DNA of 59,961 nt from an uncultured Clostridia bacterium (GTDB lineage: Bacteria; Bacillota; Clostridia; Christensenellales; UBA1242): positions 1-59,961 of the forward strand of contig CALWKG010000005.1 of assembly GCA_944381205.1 (NCBI GenBank). Direction: 5' to 3'. Each line of letters opens with the position of its first letter. Position 1 is the stretch's first letter. This document shows positions 10,079-38,841 of this stretch, piece after piece. Position numbers and translations under genes: made by a program. The notes under the pieces are model-generated. The model ran no database searches. It worked only from the letters and a program-made list of their open reading frames with translations, and had not been told where the DNA came from.

Positions 10079-12163
10079 TTACAATTTTTCAATCAATTTT
10101 AAGTCAATCTTACCTGCATTTTCAACTTTAATAACTTCTACCTTAACACTATCGCCAATATTTACAACATCTTCAACTTTTTCTACTCGTTTATTTGAAA
10201 GTTTTGAAATGTGTATCATACCATCTTTATTAGGGCTTAAACTAACAAAAGCCCCAAATTGCATAATTTTTACAACCTTACCAATAAAAACTTGCCCCTT
10301 TTCTACATCTATAACAATTGAATTGATAATTTTCTTTGCCTTTTCTGCACTGTCACTATCGGTAGAAGCAATCCAAACTTTACCGTCGTCGTCTATATCA
10401 ATTTTTACACCTGTTTCGTCTATAATTTTGTTAATGGTCTTACCGCCTGCACCTATTACGTCCCCTATTTTTGTAGGGTCAATGTTAAAACTAATAATCT
10501 TTGGTGCATATTTGCTAAGATTTTCTCTTGGCTTATCAATTGTATTTAACATAATGTTCAAAATATACATTCTGCCGTCACGAGCCTGATTTAAAGCCGT
10601 AGTCAAAATATTTTTGTCTATCCCCTTAATTTTTATATCCATTTGAATAGCAGTAATTCCCTTTTCTGTCCCTGCTACTTTAAAGTCCATATCTCCAAGA
10701 AAATCTTCCATACCTTGAATATCACTTAACACAGCAACCCTGTTAGACTTGGTATCTTTTATTAAACCCATTGCGATGCCCGCAACAGGAGCCTTAATTT
10801 TTACTCCGGCATCCATAAGGGATAAAGTAGACCCGCAAACACTAGCCATAGACGAAGACCCATTGGAACTTAAAACCTCGCTCACGAGTCTTAGTGTATA
10901 CGGAAATTCTTCTTCGCTAGGGATAACTGCTTCAAGAGCCCTTTCAGCGAGTGCTCCGTGCCCGATTTCTCTCCTGCCAGGACTTTTTAAAGGTCTAGCC
11001 TCCCCTGTTGCATAAGGTGGCATATTGTATTGATGAATATATCTTTTGTTATCCACATCATCTAAACCATCTAACTTTTGTCCTTCCCCAAGAGTCCCTA
11101 AGGTACAACAATTTAAAACTTGCGTCTGTCCACGTGTAAACACAGCACTACCGTGAACTCTTGGCAAAACCCCAACTTCACACCAAATAGGTCTAATTTC
11201 GGTTAATTTTCTGCCGTCTGGACGTTCACCTTTATCTAAAATTTTTGCCCTAACCTTTTCTTTTGTCATATTGTAAAGAACTTCACTTATCATACTTTGC
11301 CCGTCGACAAAAATGTCTTTAAAATGTTCTTGGGTTTCGACTTCTACTTCATCTTGCCTAAGTTGTCTAGTTACTCTATCAAAAGTATCTAGCGCATAAT
11401 CTAACTTTTTATCCGCGAAATCTCTTACAGCACTATTTATTTCTTCTGTTGGCTTAAATATAGGCAAATCAGTTCTTTTTTGCTTACCAATTTTGCTAAC
11501 AATATCTTCTTGAAAAACAACAAGTTTTTTTATTTCTTCGTGAGCAAACATAATAGCATCTAACATTTCTTTTTCGCTAACTTCTTTTGCACCTGCTTCC
11601 ACCATTAAAATTGCTTCTTTTGTACCACTAACAGTCACGTGCATATTGCTTTTTTCACTCTGCTCTACCGTTGGGTTAATAATATATTTGCCATCTACAC
11701 AGCCTACCACCACACTGCCCGTTGGTCCCGCAAATGGAATATCAGATATGCTCAGGGCAACACTTGATGCTAACATCGCAAGTGGTTCTGGGGCTATATC
11801 CGGGTCAACCGAAAGAGCTGTGCAAACCACCGCCACATCGTTATAAAACCCCTTTGGAAACAAAGGTCTAAGCGGTCTATCGATAAGCCTAGATGTTAAA
11901 ATAGCCTTATCACTAGCCTTCCCTTCACGTTTTTTAAACCCTCCTGGGATTTTCCCAACAGAGTACATCTTTTCTTCATAGTCAACACCTAGTGGGAAAA
12001 AATCTATGCCATCACGTGGACTTTCTGCCATAGTAACTGCACACTGAACAACTGTTTCACCACACTGAACCCAGCAAGTACCGTTTGCTTGTTCTGAATA
12101 CTTACCTGTCCTTACAATTAATTTCCTTCCCCCAACTGTCGTTTCAAATACACTTTCTTTCAT
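10079..12163 (-). CDS. pnp: Polyribonucleotide nucleotidyltransferase
   Basis: RLIDRPLRP, RREIGHG, SNGSSS, DFLGDMDFKVAG, KH (IGAGGKTI) and S1 domains. Confidence 0.98.
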   Translation of the reverse strand: MKESVFETTVGGRKLIVRTGKYSEQANGTCWVQCGETVVQCAVTMAESPRDGIDFFPLGVDYEEKMYSVGKIPGGFKKREGKASDKAILTSRLIDRPLRPLFPKGFYNDVAVVCTALSVDPDIAPEPLAMLASSVALSISDIPFAGPTGSVVVGCVDGKYIINPTVEQSEKSNMHVTVSGTKEAILMVEAGAKEVSEKEMLDAIMFAHEEIKKLVVFQEDIVSKIGKQKRTDLPIFKPTEEINSAVRDFADKKLDYALDTFDRVTRQLRQDEVEVETQEHFKDIFVDGQSMISEVLYNMTKEKVRAKILDKGERPDGRKLTEIRPIWCEVGVLPRVHGSAVFTRGQTQVLNCCTLGTLGEGQKLDGLDDVDNKRYIHQYNMPPYATGEARPLKSPGRREIGHGALAERALEAVIPSEEEFPYTLRLVSEVLSSNGSSSMASVCGSTLSLMDAGVKIKAPVAGIAMGLIKDTKSNRVAVLSDIQGMEDFLGDMDFKVAGTEKGITAIQMDIKIKGIDKNILTTALNQARDGRMYILNIMLNTIDKPRENLSKYAPKIISFNIDPTKIGDVIGAGGKTINKIIDETGVKIDIDDDGKVWIASTDSDSAEKAKKIINSIVIDVEKGQVFIGKVVKIMQFGAFVSLSPNKDGMIHISKLSNKRVEKVEDVVNIGDSVKVEVIKVENAGKIDLKLIEKL

Positions 12164-12211
12164 TGTTCACTCCTAAAACTCACTAACCTTTAAGTTATTT
12201 CAACTAAAATC

Positions 12212-12250
12212 AAAAAAAACGAGCAAAAAACAATTATCTGCTTTTTACCC
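12212..12250 (-). terminator. Intrinsic terminator after rpsO
   Basis: CGGGTAAAAAGC/GTTTTTTGCTCG stem (with G-U pairs) followed by a T run. Confidence 0.6.
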
Positions 12251-12262
12251 GCCATAAAGCAA

Positions 12263-12523
12263 TTATCTAATGTTAAGGGCTTTTTTAAGTTCCCTAAACT
12301 TTGTGATATCTTCTTTTTCTAGATAATTCAAAAGACCCTTCCTTTGTCCAACTAATTTAAGAAGTCCCCTTCTAGAATGTTTGTCCTGTGGATTTGCCCT
12401 TAGATGCTCTGTTAAATGATTAATCCTTTCTGTCAAAAGGGCAATCTGGACTTCGGTAGACCCTGTGTCTTTTTCATTCCTAGCAAAAGTTTTGATAATC
12501 TCTTGTTTTTTTGCTTTTTCCAT
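12263..12523 (-). CDS. rpsO: 30S ribosomal protein S15
   Basis: [23 protein letters not shown]...[15 protein letters not shown]. Start at MEKAKK after AAAGGAG. Confidence 0.98.
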
Positions 12524-12544
12524 AATCACAAATCTCCTTTTAAT

Positions 12545-12666
12545 AAAATCACCATAATACCAAACAAGCGCTAAGTGTTGCCACGGTTTTAAATTAAACC
12601 TAGGAGAATCACGCAAATTTAGTAACAGGCTATGAACATATTAATTCAATAAATTGTCTTTGTCAA
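12545..12666 (-). promoter_or_regulatory. rpsO sigma-A promoter plus probable S15-binding leader RNA
   Basis: TTGACA-17-TAATAT (12666-12638), then a ~100-nt relatively GC-rich 5' UTR. S15 autoregulatory leaders are established in Bacillota. Confidence 0.5.
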
Positions 12667-12759
12667 CTATTATTTTTTTTATTATAAAATTATACATACA
12701 TTGACACATAACAATTTTTTTATAAATTGGCACAAAATTTTTATTTTTTTATACTAAAA

Positions 12760-13695
12760 TTACCTGTAATAGAAATCTGAAATTATTCCTGTATTGTCTA
12801 AAACCTTTTTTGCATATCTCTTATCCATTTGATAGCCTAATTTCTGCTTATACTCTTTTTCAGCATTTTCTGCGTCTGCTCTAAATAATTCTTTTGAAAA
12901 TCTAATCCTATCATTTTTATCAAAATGTTCATCTAACTGTAAGTTATCTCTAATTCTATCAATAGCCTTTTCTACCCTATAAGAGCGTGGCAAAAACTCT
13001 GAGTCATATTTTACATCTAAAATATTTTGGCTTAGCACCCTGTCGTCAAAAGATGTAACAGAAGGGCTCACAATTACGCAATCTTCTACCCAGCCACAAT
13101 AGTTAGTCCTATATAAAGTTGCATTTGGGTTATATGTGGTATCAAAAGCGGACATTCTAATAAGCCTAGATTTTATTAAATTTTGAATTGCATTTGGCTC
13201 CATAACTTCAATCAAAGGCTTATTCCCTAAAAGTAACCTATGATATGGTTCAATATCTTCTGCTCTGTTTTTTCTATTAAAGAAACTTTTTATTAAATCC
13301 AAACTGGTTTTATTTTTCTTTCTCAATTCATCTATATGCCTATTGTATTCACCTGCTGGGACTAAATTAGAATAAAATTGCCCTTTCACACTATCACAAT
13401 CAAAATTTTCAGTATAAAATTCGTGTTCCTTTAATACCGCAACGTTACCGTTTTCTAAATCAATAGGCAAGATTTTAGGGGTATTTATACCTAAATTTCG
13501 TGCCAAATAATGTTCCATAATTTCCATATCAAGTAATTTTTTTGTTGTATATTCTAGTTTAGCAATACAACTACCATCAGAAAATCTTCTATCCAAAAGA
13601 GGTTCTTTTGTTTCTAAATATCTAGCAAGTACTGAATATTTTAATCCGTTTTCTGTAAAACTCCTTCTTTCATCTTGTACTAACTCGTCAATCAT
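12760..13695 (-). CDS. Atypical-kinase-like paralog 5 (HipA/CtkA-like fold, probable pseudokinase)
   Basis: Shares LGINTPKILPI, LIRMSAFDT, YDSEF and KLGYQMDKRY blocks with its neighbours. Start MIDEL after AAAGGAG. Confidence 0.55.
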   Translation of the reverse strand: MIDELVQDERRSFTENGLKYSVLARYLETKEPLLDRRFSDGSCIAKLEYTTKKLLDMEIMEHYLARNLGINTPKILPIDLENGNVAVLKEHEFYTENFDCDSVKGQFYSNLVPAGEYNRHIDELRKKNKTSLDLIKSFFNRKNRAEDIEPYHRLLLGNKPLIEVMEPNAIQNLIKSRLIRMSAFDTTYNPNATLYRTNYCGWVEDCVIVSPSVTSFDDRVLSQNILDVKYDSEFLPRSYRVEKAIDRIRDNLQLDEHFDKNDRIRFSKELFRADAENAEKEYKQKLGYQMDKRYAKKVLDNTGIISDFYYR

Positions 13696-13711
13696 TTTTA
13701 TCTCTCCTTTA

Positions 13712-14926
13712 TTATTTTGAAAATTCTTCTGCAATCAATTCTTTATTTTGTTGAACCGCTTCCAAATACCTTCTGTTGATTTTATATTTTGTCTTATCTT
13801 CGTACTCTGTTGCAATCTCCTTTGCGTCGACATTATTTAATTCATTTGCAAAATCAGCACGTTCCCTTTTATCCATAATATTGTTTAACAACTTATTATT
13901 TCTAATATTATAAATGGCTTTTTCTAACTTACAAGCCCCCTTTGAAAATTCTGTACGATACCTAAAATCCTTTAAATCTTTTTTTGCCGTAAAAGCATTA
14001 AACGAACCATTTATGGGCACTATGTCTTCTATTAAACCGCTATCCCCAACATAATATGCCGTACTAGTTAAATAGTCTTTTGTGTCAAACGTAGACATTC
14101 TAACAAGTCTTGTTTTAGTTAAATTTACTCCCGCGTTTATAGTAAAGTCTTCCGCCAAAAATTCTCTACCCTTTACGAAAGGTCCGTGAGGAATTTGCCC
14201 ATCACTTAAATAAATTTGTTCCAAATCATTTGATAAAGTACTACTGTATGTTTCTGGCTCAAAAAGTTTAAAAAACAAGTCTGGACTCTTACAAAAAATA
14301 TCTGCCATCGTAATTCTTGCCTGTTCGTTATTAAATACAAAATCGAAAAAATCTTGTAGTTTTTTATTATGTTTCTCTATATCTTTTTCTATATTCTTTT
14401 GACATAACTTTAAAAATAATAGTGGATTTTCACCAAAACATTCAACAAGAGTCTTATTGTAGTAATTAAAGGTCTTATCTATATGGTCATCTCCTGCCAA
14501 AATTACAGCAGGAAAATATTTTAAAAACTCCACAACATCTGGGTCTGTAATGTTGCCTTTTGACATATCCTTTTCTAGCATTGCCACCACGTGTCCGTTC
14601 ATATCGATAGGTAAAAATTGTGGAGAAATCAAATTTAACTTTGACAAAATTAAACTTTGCAGTATATTCATATCTTCCTGCTTTTTAGGTCCCCTATATC
14701 TAAGGATATATTTACTTCCATCATTTAACACGATTGGGGCTACTTCCTCAGAATAAATACTATATTGTCCGTCATTATAAAGATTACCCTGTTCGTCAGT
14801 GACGATGACAGAAAATAACTCGTTTAAAGTATCCTCTTCTTGAATATAATGTTGTAGTACAGAATACTTTAATCCCCTATCCGTTATACTGTTACGTTTT
14901 TCTTTTAAAATACTATCAATTAACAT
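13712..14926 (-). CDS. Atypical-kinase-like paralog 4 (probable pseudokinase, with central insertion)
   Basis: LNLISPQFLPI, LVRMSTFDT, YRTEF, KTKYKINRRY. ATG abuts the upstream stop (TAG-ATG). Confidence 0.55.
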   Translation of the reverse strand: MLIDSILKEKRNSITDRGLKYSVLQHYIQEEDTLNELFSVIVTDEQGNLYNDGQYSIYSEEVAPIVLNDGSKYILRYRGPKKQEDMNILQSLILSKLNLISPQFLPIDMNGHVVAMLEKDMSKGNITDPDVVEFLKYFPAVILAGDDHIDKTFNYYNKTLVECFGENPLLFLKLCQKNIEKDIEKHNKKLQDFFDFVFNNEQARITMADIFCKSPDLFFKLFEPETYSSTLSNDLEQIYLSDGQIPHGPFVKGREFLAEDFTINAGVNLTKTRLVRMSTFDTKDYLTSTAYYVGDSGLIEDIVPINGSFNAFTAKKDLKDFRYRTEFSKGACKLEKAIYNIRNNKLLNNIMDKRERADFANELNNVDAKEIATEYEDKTKYKINRRYLEAVQQNKELIAEEFSK

Positions 14927-15811
14927 CTACTTGACTAATTCCTCACAAATATTGTCTTTGTTTCTTGAAACACTGTCTGCTAACTGAGCATCAACTTTTA
15001 GCCCTGTCTTGTCAGCAAAATTTTCTACTTCTTCTTTTGTGTTAAAGGTTGAAAGACTTTCCACAATTTCATCTTTTTGCTCTTTATCTAAAACCGATTG
15101 CAAAATACTATTTTTGTTTGCGGTTTTTATTAAATCTGCTGAGTATAAAGGGGTTAAATTAAACTCATTTTTGTACATCAACCTTTCGCCTGATAATCCT
15201 TGATTAATGTCCGATAAATTAGCATCATTTTTTGTCGCAAGGACTTCATCTACTGTTGACCACATATGGTCTAATTTGTAAATATTAGATAAGTTGCTAG
15301 TTGTATCAAAAGTCGCCATTCTAACAAGTCTAATCTTAAACAAATCAATTAATGCTTTATCACTAAAATTTATGTGCGTATCTAATGCTTCTTTGCTAAA
15401 AATCTTATCTACTAACCTATCTCCGTCCGCAAAGTTTCTTAAAATATCAATTGCCCGCTGATTATTTTCCATATTAGCACTTTCTAAGACTTTACGATAG
15501 TCAAAATCTTCGTTTAACCTATTATGAAAATTATATGCACTATAAATGTCTTTTTCGGACTTTATATTATCAATCTGCAAAATTCCAGATACAATGCTTA
15601 CTTCATTATTTTCGGTAGCAATAGGTAAAATATCAGGAGCATTAATCCCCAACTTATGACATAGTAAATTAAACATTATATTAGAATCACACTCTAATTT
15701 TGACACCTGTTGTATATTCGCTTTTACTGCATCAGACAGGCGTCCCTGGGCCTTTACTCCCTTATATTCCTCTACATAATGACTTAAAACTAACAAATTA
15801 AGATTTTCCAT
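14927..15811 (-). CDS. Atypical-kinase-like paralog 3 (probable pseudokinase)
   Basis: LGINAPDILPI, LVRMATFDT, YKNEF, KTGLKVD. Start MENLNL after GGAGG. Confidence 0.55.
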   Translation of the reverse strand: MENLNLLVLSHYVEEYKGVKAQGRLSDAVKANIQQVSKLECDSNIMFNLLCHKLGINAPDILPIATENNEVSIVSGILQIDNIKSEKDIYSAYNFHNRLNEDFDYRKVLESANMENNQRAIDILRNFADGDRLVDKIFSKEALDTHINFSDKALIDLFKIRLVRMATFDTTSNLSNIYKLDHMWSTVDEVLATKNDANLSDINQGLSGERLMYKNEFNLTPLYSADLIKTANKNSILQSVLDKEQKDEIVESLSTFNTKEEVENFADKTGLKVDAQLADSVSRNKDNICEELVK

Positions 15812-16050
15812 TTTTTCCTCCAAAATTTTTTAAATTTATAAACTGTATTTGACAATTTTCTTTTAATTCATATTGCAAAATCACATTTTACACACAACAC
15901 AATATTTAGCACTTGTTTGTCTTTACTGAAACACAACAATCTAACCTTATATTTTAACCTGAAAGGCTTTTATATTTTATTTTAACACCATAGAACTAAT
16001 GTTTTTAATTATAATTTTCTACAAATATGCAAAAACATATGATATAAAAA

Positions 16051-17082
16051 TTACCTTTTTAACTCTTCTACGATTTCACTAATCTTGCCTTCCACCGCGG
16101 TTGTATATTTTTTGCTAATTTCATAGCCAGCATTTTGCTCGCTGTATTCTTTTGCAAAAGAACTCAATGAAATTTCACTTAAACTATCAGCCATTTCTCG
16201 TATTCCGTCTTTACCAAAAGCATCAGACACAACATCGCTTTGCTTAATTTTTTGAGCAATTTCGCTAATAGGTAGCGCCTTTTTAGAAAACTCACTTTGA
16301 TACATATCAGATAAATTACTTGTGTCTTTGTCGCAATTTTGAGTGTATATAGTAAGCCTATTAATGTTATTTAGCATCGGAAACACGTCTGTAACAATGC
16401 GTTTTCTGTTTGTATAATAAAGATTATTTCCAGAAACAAGTGACCTATCAAAGGTGGCAATTCTGGCAAGTCGAGATTTTACAATATCTCTTATCGCTTT
16501 TTGTTCAAAAAACCTTGAAAAAGCATATACCTTATCTTGATTTAAAAAGTCATCTGCCACATTACCTTCTACAATTTGCTCTATGTCCTTATCCACTATG
16601 TTTGTATGTAGATTATACAAACTTTCATCGTTATCAAAACTTTGTGACGATATATACTTCTTCATAGCAACTTCAATCTTTTTGGAAATATAATTGTAAA
16701 TGTCTTTTTCGGATTCTGATAGCCTATCACTTTCGGTTAACTTTTCGCAGATTTCCACAAAGGCACCATAATTCATATATGTTCCATATTCTTCACCAGA
16801 AATAAGTCTATTTCTATTTAATCCTTTTGGCAATTCAAATTCGCTTTGCATTACCATTTTTTCGTCTTGCAAACTATATACTGGCTTAATATTTGGAGCC
16901 TTTAACCCCAATTTTGTTGCTATATATGCCTGAACAATGTTTGCATCGTTTTCTTCCTTTAAAACTACCTTTGGGGTATCTATATGCTCTTTTTTGCAAA
17001 CTTCAATGTTGTTCAAATCAATACCCTCTATCCCTTGAATGTAATGTCTAAATATTGTAAGTTTTCTTTCATTATTTTTCAT
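16051..17082 (-). CDS. Atypical-kinase-like paralog 2 (probable pseudokinase)
   Basis: LGLKAPNIKPV, LARIATFDR, YQSEF, AGYEISKKY. Start MKNNER after AAGGAAG. Confidence 0.55.
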   Translation of the reverse strand: MKNNERKLTIFRHYIQGIEGIDLNNIEVCKKEHIDTPKVVLKEENDANIVQAYIATKLGLKAPNIKPVYSLQDEKMVMQSEFELPKGLNRNRLISGEEYGTYMNYGAFVEICEKLTESDRLSESEKDIYNYISKKIEVAMKKYISSQSFDNDESLYNLHTNIVDKDIEQIVEGNVADDFLNQDKVYAFSRFFEQKAIRDIVKSRLARIATFDRSLVSGNNLYYTNRKRIVTDVFPMLNNINRLTIYTQNCDKDTSNLSDMYQSEFSKKALPISEIAQKIKQSDVVSDAFGKDGIREMADSLSEISLSSFAKEYSEQNAGYEISKKYTTAVEGKISEIVEELKR

Positions 17083-17098
17083 TGTAACTAACTTCCTT

Positions 17099-18094
17099 TT
17101 ATTTTGCTTGTTCAATATTTGTATCAACCCTTTTTGTATTTTTTCTAGACGAAATTGTGCTGAAAGCAGTTTCCATATCCGATTTTTTACTGTTGTCTTT
17201 GTACATTTCCGTTTGAATTTCGTCCAAAAATTTTTCCTTATTATCCTGCATATATTTAATATATTTTGGGTCTATTTCGTAATTCATATCATCTTTTATC
17301 TCTCGCGCAACTTTAACGTAATCTAATTCCGTTAATTGTAAAATAAACTTGTGTAATTCAATGTCGTTTAAGAATTCCCTTGCATCGTCGCTATTTGCAA
17401 AACTTTGCAAAAGACTAGTCTGCTCTTGAAATTTAGTTGTAAATTCACTTCTAAATGCAGGATTTCCCCACTTTTTTTGTTTTTGTCTTAGGTAGTTCAA
17501 ACCACTCATACCCCCAGTAAGCGGTGTTATATCTGTCACCTGCCCTGCCTTTGACACAGAATACATAATTTGATTTACATCTCTATTTGGAACACCAAGA
17601 ACAGCATCTAGTAAACTTAATTTTAATCTTTGTTTTATGCTTTCACCTGTAAAATAAGTCTTTTGCAACGCGGCCAAATTGTCTGGATTACTAAAAATAT
17701 GATTGACTTCATCTTCGTTTATTTTTAGAATTTTGGATACTTTTTTGTCAAATGTAGATGCCCTTTCCATTCTCCCACGGTCAATGTCATCACACATAAC
17801 AGTTAGTTTACCGCCCTTTATTACTGGAAAATACAAAGGGACTTCATTAAATCCCAATTTATTATATACGTAAGAGGTCAAAATTTCGCCATCTACAATT
17901 TCCCTTTCTGTAACACCTTCTGGCGCCAAATAAAAATTTCCGTTTGGGGTATAAACTTTGGTTGAAGACCAAATCCCAGTATCCACTACACTTTCTTCAC
18001 ATTTTTGACCATTTTTTACTAAATTTTTATATAAAATCGCTCCGTTTTCCTCAAAATCATCTTTAAACAAATTTGCTAAAATTTCTCTTTTCAT
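17099..18094 (-). CDS. Atypical-kinase-like paralog 1 (closest to HipA/CtkA-like kinases)
   Basis: GEILTSYVYNKLGFNEVP (cf. ExLAxxIxxxLGxxVP), LLDAVLGVPNRDVNQ (cf. DxxxxNxDRHxxN), ITPLTGG (cf. LAPxFDxG), FRSEF. Confidence 0.6.
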   Translation of the reverse strand: MKREILANLFKDDFEENGAILYKNLVKNGQKCEESVVDTGIWSSTKVYTPNGNFYLAPEGVTEREIVDGEILTSYVYNKLGFNEVPLYFPVIKGGKLTVMCDDIDRGRMERASTFDKKVSKILKINEDEVNHIFSNPDNLAALQKTYFTGESIKQRLKLSLLDAVLGVPNRDVNQIMYSVSKAGQVTDITPLTGGMSGLNYLRQKQKKWGNPAFRSEFTTKFQEQTSLLQSFANSDDAREFLNDIELHKFILQLTELDYVKVAREIKDDMNYEIDPKYIKYMQDNKEKFLDEIQTEMYKDNSKKSDMETAFSTISSRKNTKRVDTNIEQAK

Positions 18095-18129
18095 AGTACA
18101 ATTTCCCTTTTACTTTAATTTCTGATACC

Positions 18130-18158
18130 ATTTTACCACCTTTTATCTGCATTTTCAA
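18130..18158 (-). promoter_or_regulatory. sigma-A promoter of the paralog array
   Basis: TTGAAA-17-TAAAAT with an extended TG. Confidence 0.65.
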
Positions 18159-18220
18159 TAGGCAAAAAAAATTTTTTTATGATTTTTACCATTTTTTACA
18201 TAACGGCTATAAAATGTATA

Positions 18221-18248
18221 TTGACTAAATGGAAATTTATTATATAAT
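18221..18248 (+). promoter_or_regulatory. sigma-A promoter of the divergent orphan gene
   Basis: TTGACT-16-TATAAT. Confidence 0.6.
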
Positions 18249-18300
18249 CAATTTAGTTAAAAACAAAAATTTGAATGTATTTATTAAAAAGGGGTTAAAA

Positions 18301-19239
18301 ATGTTTGAACAACCGGTAAAATATAAAGTAAGCGCTCACAAAGGTATTTATGAAAAATCTAAGGAACAAATTGATTTTGAAACTCAACAAAACCTAAAAA
18401 TATGTCAAGATGCCAATTTGCCAACGTATGACGTTTGCCCAACAATTATTAGGGCATTTGACGGAACGGCCTGCGATACTTGGGGTTTATCATTAGATGA
18501 AGTTATTGATTTTTGCGTTAAACAAAAAGACGATGCCCTACTTAACTACCTTCAACCAAAACCTGCGTTTTTTGAAAATGAAGATGCTATAAAAGATTAT
18601 AATTGGAATTTATACACCACGCACGTTAATCAAAATGTCAAAAGTTATGAAGATTTAATACATTATTTGATTAGGTTTCAGGAACTAAAAAAATCGTGTA
18701 AAGACACAGAAGATAAAATTTTTATAAAAAAATTAGAAAAAAAGTTTTTTGAAAAATGTGACAATATCCAACTTTTAAGTAGAGTAAACTTTATAATGAA
18801 AAGACATAATATTAGTAAGCCCGAAGCAATTGTTAGGCTTGCAAGTATTGACTCAAAAAGAGAAGAGAAATATTTGCACGAAGAAGGAAAATTTTTGTAT
18901 TTATTAAAAGACGACTTGAAAAAAGAAGCATTGAAAGCCCAAAAATTAACAGAAAAACAAAAAGAAGAAAAACAACAATCCTACTTAGATAATTATTTTT
19001 TTCATATAAATTGCTATAAAATTGCTAGCAATAAAACATACGATTATACACAAGCAAATCTTAATTTACAAAAATTTTTGATGTACTCAAACCCCGACCT
19101 AAAATATTTACAGGAAAAAATGTTGCGAGGAAAAATACTAGATAGGTCATCAAATCATACAATTTTATCAGAATATATAAATCACGAAACAAATTTAGAA
19201 AAAACAAATGAAAATAATAGCCAAGATAAAGAAATGTAA
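18301..19239 (+). CDS. Hypothetical protein (312 aa, charged, no recognised domain)
   Basis: Long ORF with AAGGGG SD before ATG 18301, its own promoter and a downstream terminator. Confidence 0.75.
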   Translation: MFEQPVKYKVSAHKGIYEKSKEQIDFETQQNLKICQDANLPTYDVCPTIIRAFDGTACDTWGLSLDEVIDFCVKQKDDALLNYLQPKPAFFENEDAIKDYNWNLYTTHVNQNVKSYEDLIHYLIRFQELKKSCKDTEDKIFIKKLEKKFFEKCDNIQLLSRVNFIMKRHNISKPEAIVRLASIDSKREEKYLHEEGKFLYLLKDDLKKEALKAQKLTEKQKEEKQQSYLDNYFFHINCYKIASNKTYDYTQANLNLQKFLMYSNPDLKYLQEKMLRGKILDRSSNHTILSEYINHETNLEKTNENNSQDKEM

Positions 19240-19363
19240 AAACATTTAAGACACAATGAGAAATTATATAAACACTAATTGTTAAACAACTTGTAATGAT
19301 AGACAAAATTAATTAAATACCGACTAGATAATAGTTAAAATAACTTTCCACCTAAAAAAGGAC

Positions 19364-19400
19364 TAAAAAAACACTACAAACTAAATTGTAGTGTTTTTTT
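19364..19400. terminator. Bidirectional terminator
   Basis: AAAAAAACACTACAA...TTGTAGTGTTTTTTT inverted repeat between convergent genes. Confidence 0.8.
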
Positions 19401-19419
19401 ATATACTAAAATTTACCTA

Positions 19420-19953
19420 TTAAAATTCTTCACAAAGAACTTGAAAATAACTCATAGGGTGCTTACATACTGGGCAAATATCTGGGGCTTTATCTCCTTC
19501 TATTCTATGACCACAGTTTCTACATTCCCAAACAACCTTCTTTGCTTTGGAAAATACTTTGTTTTCCCTTACGTTTTTTAGAAGGGCTTTATATCTTTCT
19601 TCGTGGTGTTTTTCAATTTTTGCCACACCTTCAAATTGCTCTGCTATTTCTACAAAGCCTTCTTCCCTTGCGGTTTTAGCAAACTCCTTATACATATCTG
19701 TCCATTCGTAATTTTCCCCCTGCATAGCCGCTTCCAAATTCTGTTCGGTAGTTCCTATTCCATTAAGGGCTTTAAACCACAGTTTTGCGTGTTCCTTCTC
19801 ATTATCTGCGGTTTTGGTAAAAATTTCAGCAATTTGCTCATAGCCGTCTTTTTTTGCCTTACTTGCAAAATAAGTATATTTGTTTCTAGCCTGTGATTCT
19901 CCTGCAAAAGCAGTCCATAAATTTTTTTCTGTTTGACTTCCTTTAAGTTCCAT
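19420..19953 (-). CDS. rbr: Rubrerythrin
   Basis: [27 protein letters not shown] and a rubredoxin domain CRNC...CPVC. Confidence 0.97.
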
Positions 19954-34986: not shown

Positions 34987-35766
34987 TTACAAATTAAACG
35001 TTAGTTGGTCGCAATTTTCTTCTTCTAAATCTAGTGTCAATTGCCTACTTTCATCAAAAACGTTTACTTCTTTTGCCTTAAAATCTTCTGCAACTTTGCT
35101 AGGTTGTGGATTTTTAGCCGAAACTAAACTGCCGGTTGCCCTTTCGTATCTTTCTCTTGCTTTAAGTACGTTAAGGGTTGATTTATTGTACTTTTCTTCC
35201 GCTTCTAACAACTCTTTATTTGCCTGTTCTTTTGCTCTTTGTACAGTGTTTTCTGCATTTTGCCTTGCTTCTATTGCCATTTCTCGCAATTCTTGCATTT
35301 TTTTGTTATATACTTCCTGTGCAGATTTCTTTGCTTGTTCTACATTTTTATTAACCTGTTGCTGAGTATTATCCAACCCTTCTTCAAGTTTTTGATTTCT
35401 CTCCTGTGCTCGTTCAAGTTTACGTTTAAGTTCTCTTTCCTTTAAATCCTTATCAACAAGTTTTTTTATGATAGGCTCTGCCTTTTTTACATTCTTTCTT
35501 AGTTCAAAACTTTCCTTTACTGCTTCATCTTCAAGAGATTTAACTTCATTTAGTACCTGCGTCATAAATTCGCCCAAATCCTTGTCCTTTTCACTTAATA
35601 AGGATTCAATTATAGTCTTTACCTTTGTGTAAGCTTTGAATTCCCCAACAATCTCTTTTTGCCTTTCTTTTGCGCTATCTGTATATCCTCTTAGTGCCCT
35701 ATATTTAGCATCATCATCTAATAAAACATTTAATGCTTTTTCTAAACTTTCCATAACCTTTTTCAC
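34987..35766 (-). CDS. Coiled-coil hypothetical protein with C-terminal QLxLxL/QLxFxL motifs
   Basis: E/K/Q/A-rich heptad-like body; ends QLTLDLEEENCDQLTFNL. Start GTG 35766 or ATG 35754. Confidence 0.75.
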   Translation of the reverse strand: MKKVMESLEKALNVLLDDDAKYRALRGYTDSAKERQKEIVGEFKAYTKVKTIIESLLSEKDKDLGEFMTQVLNEVKSLEDEAVKESFELRKNVKKAEPIIKKLVDKDLKERELKRKLERAQERNQKLEEGLDNTQQQVNKNVEQAKKSAQEVYNKKMQELREMAIEARQNAENTVQRAKEQANKELLEAEEKYNKSTLNVLKARERYERATGSLVSAKNPQPSKVAEDFKAKEVNVFDESRQLTLDLEEENCDQLTFNL

Positions 35767-35899: not shown

Positions 35900-37039
35900 T
35901 TAAATTAATTTCATAATAATACTATTTAAGACATAATAGGCATTTTCGCTAACCTTTATATGCCCGTTTCTAAGAGATATAAAACCACGCGACGACAAAA
36001 ATTCAATTTCTTGCTTTTTATCTTTTAATATATGCCCGCCATATTCATTGTCAAAATCTTCTATATTTATACCTTCTCTCGTTCTAAGCCCAAGCATAAT
36101 AGATTCTTCCCTACGCATATTTAAACTGAGTTTTTCAACAGAAACAATAGGAAAGGTGTCATTTTCAATACTATTTATGTACTTATCAAAATCTTCCGTA
36201 TTGGCAAAACGTGTATCGTTCATATACGAATGTCCACCAACACCAAAAGCCAAATATTCACCCAATTTCCAATAGTTCTGGTTGTGCTTACACTCATAAT
36301 CTAGCATACTAAAATTAGATACTTCATATCTTTTTAATCCGGCACGTGATAATAAGTCGTAAACAGTATTGTACATTTCTACCGTTTCATCTTCACTTGG
36401 TACTTTTAAAGCCCCTACTTTTACCTTATCGTACATAACCGTACCCGGCTCCAAAATAAGAGAATATGCCGAAACGTGATTTACCTTTTGCCTTACTAAA
36501 AACCTTACTATTTTTTTTACGTCACCTATTTTTTGCCCCGGTAGACCTAACATCATATCCACCGAAATATTTTGAAAACCCACATCTTTTGCCAATTCTA
36601 CGGCTTCTTTTGCCTGTTTTGCCGTGTGTTGTCTACCAATTAATTTTAAAATTTTGTCGTTTAAGGTCTGCACCCCAAAACTCATTCTATTAATACCTGC
36701 TAGTTTGTATTCCCTTAGTTTTTCTTCTGTTGCAGTTTCAGGATTACATTCTACTGTGATTTCTACATTTCTTAAAAATCTAAAATTTTGCTTTAAAGCA
36801 ATCATTATATTTGTAATCATACCCACACCCAAAACACTAGGTGTTCCGCCACCAAAAAAGATTGAAGAAATTTTATAATTTTTTCCTTCTTTTTTTCCTC
36901 GCATTTTTATTTCTTCTATCAAAGCATCTACATATTTTTGCATAAGAGCCTGTTTATCTACAAAAGATACAAAATTGCAATAGTCACACTTTTTTTTGTT
37001 ACAAAATGGAATATGAATATATAGTGATAACGTTTTCAT
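35900..37039 (-). CDS. hemW: Radical SAM heme chaperone HemW (HemN-like)
   Basis: LYIHIPFC, FGGGTPS, YEVSNF, HNQNYW (HemW HNxxYW). lepA-hemW synteny. Confidence 0.92.
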   Translation of the reverse strand: MKTLSLYIHIPFCNKKKCDYCNFVSFVDKQALMQKYVDALIEEIKMRGKKEGKNYKISSIFFGGGTPSVLGVGMITNIMIALKQNFRFLRNVEITVECNPETATEEKLREYKLAGINRMSFGVQTLNDKILKLIGRQHTAKQAKEAVELAKDVGFQNISVDMMLGLPGQKIGDVKKIVRFLVRQKVNHVSAYSLILEPGTVMYDKVKVGALKVPSEDETVEMYNTVYDLLSRAGLKRYEVSNFSMLDYECKHNQNYWKLGEYLAFGVGGHSYMNDTRFANTEDFDKYINSIENDTFPIVSVEKLSLNMRREESIMLGLRTREGINIEDFDNEYGGHILKDKKQEIEFLSSRGFISLRNGHIKVSENAYYVLNSIIMKLI

Positions 37040-37041
37040 AC

Positions 37042-38841
37042 TTAATCATCAAGTTTTAAAATGGACATAAAGGCTTCGCTTGGAATTTCTACTGAGCCAA
37101 TTTGTCTCATTCTTTTCTTGCCCTCCTTTTGCTTTTCTAATAACTTACGTTTTCTAGAAATATCTCCCCCATAACACTTTGCTAAAACGTCCTTTCTCAT
37201 TGCTTTTACGGTTTCCCTAGCAATGACCTTTCCACCTATACAAGCCTGTATTGGTAATTCAAACAACTGCCTTGGGATAACTTCCTTTAACTTCTCTGCC
37301 AATTTTTTACCACGAGAGTACGCAAAATCCTTGTGGACTATAACGCTTAATGCGTCACACTTTTCACCATTAAGCAAAATATCTAACTTTACTAGGTCAC
37401 TCTTTTTAAATTCGTTAACATCGTAATCTAAACTTGCATATCCTCGGGAACGAGATTTTAATCCATCAAAGAAATCATAGACTATCTCGCATAGCGGAAT
37501 GTTGTATTTTAACATAACCCTGCTTTTGTCTAAATATTGCATATCTAAGTACTCTCCGCGCTTGTTTTGACAAAGTTCCATAATTCCACCTACATATTCT
37601 GGCGGGGTATATATGGTAACACTTGCAATAGGCTCCTGCACTTCTTTTATTTCAGTTACCGCTGGCCAAAGTGACGGGTTTGAAATTTCCTGTACTGTTC
37701 CGTCTGTTTTAAACACTTTGTAACTCACACTAGGTGAAGTTGTTATAATATCTAAGTTAAACTCTCTTTCCAACCTTTCGCTAATAATTTCTAGATGCAA
37801 AAGTCCCAAAAATCCACATCTAAAACCATAGCCTAGTGCGGTGGATACTTCTGGTGTAAAGTGCAAAGAATCATCATTTAATTTTAGTTTTTCTAAGGCA
37901 TCTTTTAAATCATTATATCTTGCACCATCTACTAAAAACACCCCGCAATACACCATAGGCTTCACGTCTTTATACCCTTCTAGTGCGTGCTCAGTTGGAT
38001 TATCTGCAAAGGTTATTGTATCCCCTACCTTTGTTTCGGAAACATTTTTTATACTAGCGCAAATATAACCCACCATACCAGTTTTTAGCACAGATATTTC
38101 CCTTGGGCTTGGGCAAAACACACCTACTTCGGTTATGTCATAACTCTTACCCGTTCTCATCATTTTTATTTTATCCCCAGTCTTTGCTTCACCGTCAAAA
38201 ACTCTAACTAAACTAACTGCACCCTTAAAATTATCGTAGTAACTATCAAAAATCAATGCTTTTAATGGAGCATTTCTATCTCCTTTGGGAGATGGGATTT
38301 TGGTTACAATACTTTCTAAAACCTTATCTATATTTATTCCTTCTTTGGCGGAGATTAACGGGGCATCACTACAATCTAGCCCGATAATTTCTTCTATCTC
38401 TTTTTTTACTTCTTCAACTCTGGCACTAGGCAGGTCTATTTTGTTTATAACAGGAACTATTGTAAGGTCGTTTTCTAATGCTAGATAGACATTTGCAAGT
38501 GTTTGAGCCTGTACTCCCTGAGTCGCATCTACAACAAGTATTGCTCCTTCACATGCTTTAAGCGAACGTGAAACCTCGTAGGTAAAGTCCACGTGCCCCG
38601 GAGTATCAATTAGATTTAGTGTGTATTCTTCGCCATTGTACTCATAAAACATTCTCGTAGGAGTTAGTTTTATTGTAATACCTCGTTCGCGCTCAATATC
38701 CATACTATCCAGGACCTGCTCGGTCAATTCACGGCTAGACAATGTGCCCGTTTTTTCTATCAATCGGTCAGCAAGAGTACTTTTACCATGGTCTATGTGT
38801 GCTATTATGCAAAAATTTCGTATATTTTTTAATTCGTTCAT
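37042..38841 (-). CDS. lepA: Elongation factor 4
   Basis: [50 protein letters not shown]. Confidence 0.99.

Follow-up and report, generated by a model that had tools for sequence, protein, structure and literature searches.

CtkA (JHP0940) of Helicobacter pylori and the Hip kinases are the closest described counterparts of the proteins reported here. According to PMC5536186, CtkA is an active Ser/Thr kinase tied to a type IV secretion system that is encoded on an integrative and conjugative element (ICE). Hip kinases are defined, in PMC8262856, by four intact motifs together with an adjacent antitoxin gene, either helix-turn-helix (HTH) or HipS-like. A protein with a kinase fold from which one or more key catalytic residues are missing is, in operational terms, a pseudokinase (PMC13519141). 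The subject of this report is an array of five co-oriented genes, A–E, at positions 12760–18094 on the minus strand of a 59,961-nucleotide stretch of DNA from an uncultured Clostridia bacterium (GenBank assembly GCA_944381205.1, contig CALWKG010000005.1), the whole of which is referred to as the window. A preliminary description of this DNA had proposed five tandem HipA/CtkA-like pseudokinases. As predicted here, the genes encode paralogs of one kinase-fold family from which the canonical catalytic residues have been lost, and other species of the same genus carry arrays predicted to be intact. The genome that contains the window is denoted G000, other genomes of the genus are coded G0xx, and X denotes a sixth paralog found in relatives.

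Catalytic residues of the array proteins

When the five proteins were placed in the profile alignment of their family, none was found to keep the Asp of the DRH catalytic loop or the metal-binding Asp of the IDxG motif. The catalytic loop of gene A (17099–18094, 331 aa), which is the first gene in the array and the most divergent paralog, reads LLDAVLGVPNRDVNQ, with Asn in place of the DRH Asp. The corresponding loops are LARIATFDRSLVSGN in gene B (16051–17082, 343 aa; Asp to Ser), LVRMATFDTTSNLSN in gene C (14927–15811, 294 aa; Asp to Thr), LVRMSTFDTKDYLTS in gene D (13712–14926, 404 aa; Asp to Lys) and LIRMSAFDTTYNPNA in gene E (12760–13695, 311 aa; Asp to Thr). The DFG-like site, which corresponds to the IDxGxS column of the profile, reads PLTGGMS in A, PMLNNIN in B, ATKNDAN in C, PINGSFN in D and IVSPSVT in E. 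The (Y/F)xxEF motif had previously been taken for the Mg-binding DFG/LAPxFD equivalent; this assignment did not hold, as the true IDxGxS column lies ∼20 residues upstream. In gene A the DFG-like Asp is replaced by Thr and the β3-like Lys by Ala, with the αC-like Glu kept. Among the five, only B and C retain the Asn that stands five positions beyond the catalytic Asp.

The family as a whole is mostly different. Of the 127 proteins classified, the full set of Asp, Asn and Asp is kept in 83, two of these residues in 4 and none or one in 36, while 4 could not be aligned, so that about two thirds of the members are predicted to be catalytically intact; 73 of the 83 intact-type proteins also keep the β3-like Lys and the αC-like Glu. 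All 8 alignable copies in G000 keep none or one of the three residues, and most copies in the sub-lineage to which this genome belongs lack the β3-like Lys and the αC-like Glu as well. For a comparison of the two classes, 194 family sequences were split by the Asp/Asn/Asp positions into 123 intact-type and 71 degenerate sequences, with Lys and Glu not used for the split. The β3-like Lys falls from 0.93 in the intact-type class to no majority residue in the degenerate class (commonest Arg, 0.23), and the αC-like Glu from 0.94 to no majority (commonest Asn, 0.31). The metal-binding position of the degenerate group holds no conserved acidic residue, Ser being the commonest at 0.31. Scaffold columns of the degenerate class (D58 0.94, F131 0.93, Y161 0.86, F199 0.87 and Y250 0.89) are at least as well conserved as in the intact class. 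Because Lys and Glu were lost despite standing outside the split, and the scaffold was kept, the pattern points to loss of the catalysis-specific positions with retention of the fold. With a predicted kinase fold and with the canonical catalytic residues absent from all five, A–E fit the definition of a pseudokinase at the sequence level, and the earlier use of that term was appropriate.

Predicted fold and family membership

AlphaFold2 models were obtained for A (predicted local distance difference test score, pLDDT, 89.5; predicted template modeling score, pTM, 0.87) and for E (pLDDT 85.9, pTM 0.86). Foldseek placed CtkA first for the E model (3akk_C, E 3.8e-4), with HipA and PI3K-like kinases ranked next. 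The VIA structure search with the same model also gave CtkA as top match (Z 13.9, 236 residues aligned, root-mean-square deviation 3.8), then 7wcf (Z 12.6), which belongs to work on Legionella Lpg2370/HipT, HipA (11.8 for 5k98, and 11.2) and HipT (11.0, 7ab3), with actin-fragmin kinase (10.9), CotH (10.7), PI4KIIα (10.4) and Fam20 (10.1) further down. For the A model, VIA returned CtkA 3akj_A (Z 17.1, 254 of 275 residues, root-mean-square deviation 3.9) and then 7wcf (15.3), HipA (14.6, 5k98) and HipT (13.8, 7ab3), in the same order as for E. CtkA was the top match in all three fold searches, and on these models A–E have the HipA/CtkA/PI3-4K-like atypical kinase fold that the preliminary description had put forward for checking by Foldseek. 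In a separate Foldseek comparison with the BFVD viral library, the A model matched kinase-like domains inside large phage proteins (E 1e-5 to 1e-3), which are annotated as ADP-ribosyltransferase, as PI3/4-kinase domain or as portal/head-morphogenesis fusions.

All-vs-all comparison of the five proteins by BLASTP linked D with E at 1e-28, B with D at 7e-13, C with D at 3e-12, C with E at 7e-11, B with C at 1e-10, B with E at 2e-8, A with D at 3e-7, A with B at 4e-4 and A with E at 2e-3; no match was reported between A and C. Every one of the five matches the family profile at 1e-40 to 5e-59, the value for A, 5.3e-59, being its clearest link to the family. The shared motif blocks on which paralogy had first been proposed are largely present: the second block (LLDAVLGVPNR, LARIATFDR, LVRMATFDT, LVRMSTFDT and LIRMSAFDT) and (Y/F)xxEF occur in all five, and the C-terminal Y.(I/M)...Y in the expected four (C lacks it). 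The LG..P...P block, claimed for all, was found in four, as D has LN. Judged by the BLASTP values and by the tree described below, the five genes are true paralogs, old, diverged and intact.

A search of 1.84 billion proteins with a profile of the five gave 126 representatives, of which 117 were aligned with the five window proteins (alignment A2). The family consensus core comprises a Lys after a G..YY strand, DAEILLSQ, LDxAxxNxDRHxxNxFY and IDxGxSG. Searches with the family profile picked up Physarum actin-fragmin kinase (1cja; E 0.0019) and, with a weak score, Fam20A. Pfam matches among 122 family members were PF00454 (PI3_PI4_kinase) in 5 (best 2.5e-5), ABC1 in 2 and HipA_C (PF07804) in 1 (E 1.1e-4). 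A–E themselves have no Pfam or NCBIfam match; none of the five matches PF07804 (E up to 1), and none reaches the curated threshold of PF00454. PHROGs and PADLOC scans of A–E and of the neighboring gene F gave nothing significant, and none of 50,697 phage records was matched in tblastn searches with A and with an intact-type relative. A PADLOC match of an intact-type relative to PDC-M03A (E 0.003) was treated as noise-level. Gene D has only 2 matches among 5.8 billion clustered proteins. By these searches the proteins form an unannotated family of a known, predicted kinase fold for which there is no Pfam or NCBIfam model. The nearest clusters in the ESM Atlas, partly phage-labeled and otherwise LepB_N and PI3_PI4, were taken as leads only.

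Conservation, age and selection

Pfam assignments put S15 (rpsO) and PNPase (pnp) downstream of the array and rubrerythrin and RecJ upstream. In G018 the order is RecJ, rubrerythrin, F (on the opposite strand), A, B, X, C, D, E and PNPase. G003 has A, B, X, C, an E-like gene, S15 and PNPase; here D is absent and F lies at the end of a different contig. In G015 the array follows rubrerythrin with a different paralog set. X, present in G018 and G003 and absent in the window, takes the position of the gap between B and C. The search of related genomes for gene order, which had been suggested as a check, showed that sister species keep both this order and this site. The location of the array between rpsO and rubrerythrin stands as first given, and the word "inserted" does not, as synteny in no fewer than three further species of the genus indicates that the array is a long-standing resident of this site and was not recently inserted. 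The fixed order in sister species fits non-redundant roles of the paralogs.

The array has diverged faster than its surroundings. Protein identity between the window and G018 is 88% for PNPase, 88% for rubrerythrin, 70% for RecJ and 54% for F; for the array it is 43% (A), 44% (B), 38% (C), 39% (D) and 32% (E), and array orthologs across sister species are only 30–47% identical. In a maximum-likelihood tree of 45 sequences (quick search, with support from the Shimodaira–Hasegawa-like approximate likelihood ratio test, SH-aLRT, only), copies of one paralog type cluster together whatever genome they come from, with SH-aLRT values of 98 for A, 100 for B, 95 for C and 99 for D. Groups A and C each include copies from G018, G003 and G015, group B includes those from G018 and G003, and gene D forms a pair with the fifth array gene of G018 (SH-aLRT 99). 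Gene E of the window and several further sequences have long branches, which makes their placement in the tree uncertain. Grouping by paralog type indicates that the duplications are older than these species.

The ratio of nonsynonymous to synonymous substitution rates (dN/dS; Nei–Gojobori) between G018 and G003 is 0.13–0.29 for six ortholog pairs versus 0.034 for pnp, the B pair giving no dS; these values are rough because dS, at 1.4–2.8, is near saturation. Such ratios indicate purifying selection, and together with frames of ∼300–400 codons that stay open in 30% GC across four species they suggest functional genes under relaxed or shifting constraint.

Distribution of the family and two types of array

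The genome G000 (998,863 bp, 31 contigs, 94.3% complete) carries eight family copies, all degenerate: the five in the array and one each on contigs C2, C19 and C13. The last, at C13:6632–7794, is split into two overlapping open reading frames (ORFs), one of 177 aa over profile positions 2–139 and one of 221 aa over positions 104–273. It would be either a paralog that is frameshifted or broken, or a product of misassembly. A profile search of the genome found no intact-type copy at E up to 1e-3.

The five-gene profile matched in 18 of 24 genomes of the same genus and in 0 of 16 from other families of the order. With a broader profile, 28 of the 151 genomes in the taxonomic family, from 18 of its 58 genera, had a match at E ≤1e-5; matches outside the genus were mostly single and distant. 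In a class-wide sample of 399 genomes, 6 of 391 outside the taxonomic family of the window matched, all weakly, and 7 other genomes of that family had no match; two genomes were unscored. The protein family is nearly confined to one taxonomic family of gut Clostridia with ∼1 Mb genomes, and the sequencing runs that contain the array region are labeled chicken gut metagenomes.

Twenty-seven further regions from relatives were then taken in, and every family ORF in them was classified. Intact-type arrays of 2–6 genes are present in G014, G010, G006, G017, G004 and G020, and intact-type single genes in G009, G007, G005, G011, G021 and G019. Where flanks were checked (by Pfam at one locus, by gene sizes at others), the intact-type site lies between lepA-hemW and hrcA-grpE-dnaK. 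Degenerate arrays occur in G000, G018, G003 and G015, with degenerate or partly degenerate copies in G013 and G022, and the additional copies that G018 and G003 carry on further contigs also belong to the degenerate class. None of the 20 loci examined mixes the two types in one array: each is either all intact-type or all degenerate or partly degenerate. Separately, G006 (1.3 Mb) holds at least 19 intact-type copies in four loci (L027, L028, L034 and L035), an unusually large share of a small genome.

The G000 counterparts of lepA (37042–38841) and hemW (35900–37039), both on the minus strand, lie inside the window. Here hemW is followed by an unrelated 259-aa ORF (34987–35766, no Pfam match), and hrcA-grpE-dnaK is on contig C1. 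An array at the hemW site of G000 was excluded, since the unrelated ORF that follows hemW means that no family copy stands there and that the gene order differs.

Array layout and flanking genes

Gene starts were chosen as in-frame ATGs with GGAGG/AGGA-like (Shine–Dalgarno-like) sequence upstream. The ORF list gives five co-oriented frames, for which the refined models of 294–404 aa agree with the 295–405 aa first reported, and the two 16-nt junctions (A–B and D–E) and the TAG-ATG junction (C–D) are all present. The ATG of B, at 17082, lies 16 nt past the stop of A, and B is followed by 239 nt of non-coding DNA (15812–16050). Gene C has GGAGG before its ATG, the ATG of D abuts the TAG stop of C, and the ATG of E, with AAGGAG upstream, is 16 nt past the stop of D. 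Relative to E, gene D has insertions that total ∼90 residues, mainly between the lobes. All five frames stay open in a genome of ∼30% GC. The proteins are predicted to be soluble and acidic (pI 4.9–6.1), with no hydrophobic segment or signal-like N terminus (maximum Kyte–Doolittle 19-residue mean ≤1.01).

A promoter-like site of σ70 type with an extended −10 element (TTGAAA, 17 nt, TG-n-TAAAAT) lies at 18130–18158 on the minus strand, 36 nt upstream of the ATG of A, and a second (TTAAAA, 18 nt, TG-TAAAAT) lies in the B–C gap at 16008–15979. The claim that a σA promoter heads the array finds a consensus match at the expected place; since a scan of the region found 49 sites versus 37 expected in such AT-rich DNA, the site is only consistent with a promoter. 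None of the sequencing runs listed as holding the array region is an RNA run. Rfam gave no match on 12000–19600, and tblastn with two X proteins found no X remnant in the B–C gap, the sole match (E 0.002) lying inside gene C. As had been stated before, no antitoxin HTH, transposase or integrase gene was recognized next to the array in Pfam and NCBIfam scans of its neighbors.

Two observations came from individual sequencing runs. Run X9 has a 12-nt in-frame deletion at 13874, in gene D. One contig of run X3 joins 12690 to 18175 and skips 5484 nt, exactly the five-gene array, with the shorter side anchored by 22 nt only; most bins across the array have little or no cover in this run. The contig may represent a relative that lacks the array or an artefact, and is too weak to claim an array-free strain.

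Gene F (18301–19239, plus strand, ∼312 aa) is an orphan located between A and rubrerythrin and transcribed divergently from the array; in G018 it likewise adjoins A in divergent orientation. It has 3 matches among 5.8 billion proteins, whose lengths support the start at 18301, and is present in 3 of 28 genomes of the genus (G000, G018 and G003), the three with the A-B-...-E type of array. No Pfam, NCBIfam, PHROG or PADLOC match and no usable ESM Atlas lead was obtained for F. No support was found for F as a remote kinase-family member or as an antitoxin (hhalign probability 0.1; Protein Data Bank profile search E 0.05 or worse), with a small chance left that it is an unrecognized antitoxin.

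Discussion

On balance we favor the reading that A–E act without canonical phosphotransfer, as non-catalytic kinase-fold binding proteins; we hold it to be probable, if by no means secure, as a whole, and its specifics less so. Under this reading the proteins would bind nucleotide, or would bind, trap or act as decoys for whatever the intact relatives phosphorylate, and each paralog could be specialized for a different partner. Fast divergence and variable copy number would fit a role in conflict or interaction better than one in core metabolism. Transcription would probably proceed as A–B and C–D–E units from the promoter-like sites before A and C, with short junctions that would allow translational coupling.

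Several points weigh against binding without catalysis, or against the conflict role attached to it. That A–E are inactive we infer from their sequences alone, and some proteins called pseudokinases by sequence bind ATP or catalyze through other residues. The former catalytic loop has conserved replacement motifs, (R/K)(M/I/L)(A/S)TFD common to B–E and their orthologs and NRD.NQ in A-type proteins, which make a repurposed active site possible. Evolutionary rate and copy-number pattern are the sole features that suggest a conflict role, and PADLOC and PHROGs gave no defense or phage match for A–E. Near-saturated dS makes the dN/dS estimates rough. Within the species, the 10 variants listed for genes A and D, from a set with 153 more, comprise 5 synonymous and 5 nonsynonymous ones; this listing is drawn from the contigs of 4 runs and is too small for a sound ratio of nonsynonymous to synonymous polymorphism (pN/pS).

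The conserved loops bear most directly on the alternative that A–E are still enzymes, that is, atypical kinases or nucleotide-dependent transferases that work through relocated residues such as the Asp of TFD, two positions before the lost Asp, or the Asn-Arg-Asp of A. Kinase-fold enzymes with non-canonical chemistry exist. Within orthogroups the former loop is conserved, as LLDxAxxVxNRDxNQI(M/A)Y in A-type proteins of 4 species and as the TFD motif across B–E, X and their relatives, and dN/dS below 0.3 indicates constraint. Set against this, five independent catalytic positions (Lys, Glu, Asp, Asn and Asp) have been lost together in the degenerate group, its metal-binding position has no conserved acidic residue, and the replacement residues differ among the paralogs. 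We regard retained catalysis as unlikely, while giving it some weight.

The preliminary description had proposed that the five proteins form one hetero-oligomeric complex, scaffold or sensor. Such an assembly would be in line with the paralog order fixed across G000, G018 and G003, with junctions of 0–16 nt that allow coupled translation and with the retention of every orthogroup, which suggests non-redundant roles; kinase-pseudokinase pairs of the Fam20A–Fam20C type, moreover, are among the structural neighbors (5yh3). An obligate machine of fixed stoichiometry should vary less in composition than is seen here, with D missing from G003, X from the window and a different set in G015. Since array composition differs between species, related specialists fit somewhat better than a fixed machine. 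A complex prediction for the single pair A + B, run without controls, scored 0.05 versus a mark of 0.32 and counts neither way. That the five form a single complex seems to us rather unlikely.

A bolder form of the favored reading, that of non-catalytic binding proteins, would see in the locus a conserved operon in which five to six dead CtkA/HipA-fold paralogs stand in fixed order and, perhaps joined by F, serve as specialized decoys or sensors, or as a hetero-oligomer, in conflict with phages, other microbes or the host. By analogy it would correspond, in bacteria, to the tandem pseudokinase families of eukaryotes, and its ancestors would have been active-kinase arrays like those that sister species still carry. 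Taken jointly, these propositions are doubtful.

Export of A–E as effectors that act on an animal host or on other microbes, in the manner of CtkA, we consider distinctly improbable. CtkA is the closest solved structure, fast divergence and copy-number variation are also seen in effector families, the genome is of 1 Mb with the region found in chicken-gut runs, and the A model resembles kinase-like domains within large phage proteins. The proteins nevertheless have no signal peptide or hydrophobic segment, and at the locus itself, which was surveyed in place of the whole genome, no secretion-system genes adjoin the array (its neighbors being S15, PNPase, rubrerythrin and RecJ). The ICE-encoded type IV secretion system on which CtkA depends (PMC5536186) is a context not seen at this locus.

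It is very improbable that the genes are decaying remnants, now functionless, of a kinase array that was once active. The loss of catalytic residues, the fast evolution, the split C13 copy and the X3 contig that may skip the whole array on a 22-nt anchor would all agree with decay. Decay would not be expected to leave ORFs of 294–404 codons open in 30% GC, with open orthologs in G018, G003 and G015, dN/dS of 0.13–0.29, a gene D indel that is in frame (12 nt) in the one run that has it, and scaffold residues conserved at least as strongly as in the intact class. A toxin-antitoxin or persistence module of HipBA/HipBST type, for which the likeness of fold to HipA (Z 11.8–14.6) and HipT (Z 11.0–15.3) speaks, can hardly be credited, because the catalytic and Mg-binding motifs required of Hip kinases (PMC8262856) are absent, no HTH or HipS-like neighbor was recognized and 0 of 5 proteins match PF07804; as far as its sequence tells, the array is not a module of the HipBA type.

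A search of the full-text literature found no description of tandem bacterial arrays of CtkA/HipA-fold pseudokinases. The words "tandem" and "pseudokinase" are absent from the main text of a HipA phylogeny paper, and its supplementary lists of Hip kinases might include related short Firmicutes kinases. What appears to be new is the occurrence of arrays predicted to be wholly catalytically dead beside intact-type arrays in the same genus. One genus holds intact-type arrays in some of its species and all-degenerate arrays under selection in others, which makes it a clean comparative system for the role of kinase-fold proteins after the loss of catalysis, a question that has been studied mostly in eukaryotes. 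The locus also flags a large, fast-evolving family that may shape the interaction of reduced-genome gut bacteria with their surroundings. If a tandem pseudokinase set used in conflict were indeed at hand, the genus would offer a natural and datable transition from kinase to pseudokinase of a whole gene family.

Among the known systems, CtkA (3akj/3akk) resembles the window proteins most closely. It is the best structural match to the A and E models over nearly the whole CtkA chain, and it shares with A–E a length of ∼300 aa and a single domain that lacks the HipA-type N-terminal subdomain. The window proteins differ in being 8–12% identical to it, in lacking the catalytic residues and in standing five in tandem between chromosomal housekeeping genes. 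HipA and HipT (5k98, 4pu3, 7ab3 and 7wcf) have the same core kinase fold (Z 11.0–15.3), and HipT and the short Hip families (PMC8262856) likewise consist of the core domain only (∼280–350 aa). Relative to them, A–E lack two of the motifs (catalytic and Mg-binding), a recognized antitoxin gene and a HipA_C match.

Type II PI4K, actin-fragmin kinase and Fam20 (PF00454 and relatives) resemble the family in its consensus of D....N.DR...N type and in structure (Z 10–13). The known members are kinases of lipids or of the secretory pathway in eukaryotes and carry additional domains, and the DRHxxN loop and metal-binding Asp that link PI3/PI4-kinases to the family consensus and to 83 of 127 proteins are found in 0 of the 5 window proteins. 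Fam20A is a single pseudokinase paired with an active paralog, whereas in G000 no intact paralog was found. Toxoplasma ROP5 clusters and the plant decoy ZED1 are eukaryotic kinases of the Hanks type, whose partners are known and which take part in conflict between host and pathogen. The array would resemble them, by analogy only, as a tandem set of fast-diverging, putatively dead kinase-fold paralogs kept by selection; here the set is that of a bacterium, and its predicted fold is of the CtkA/HipA type.

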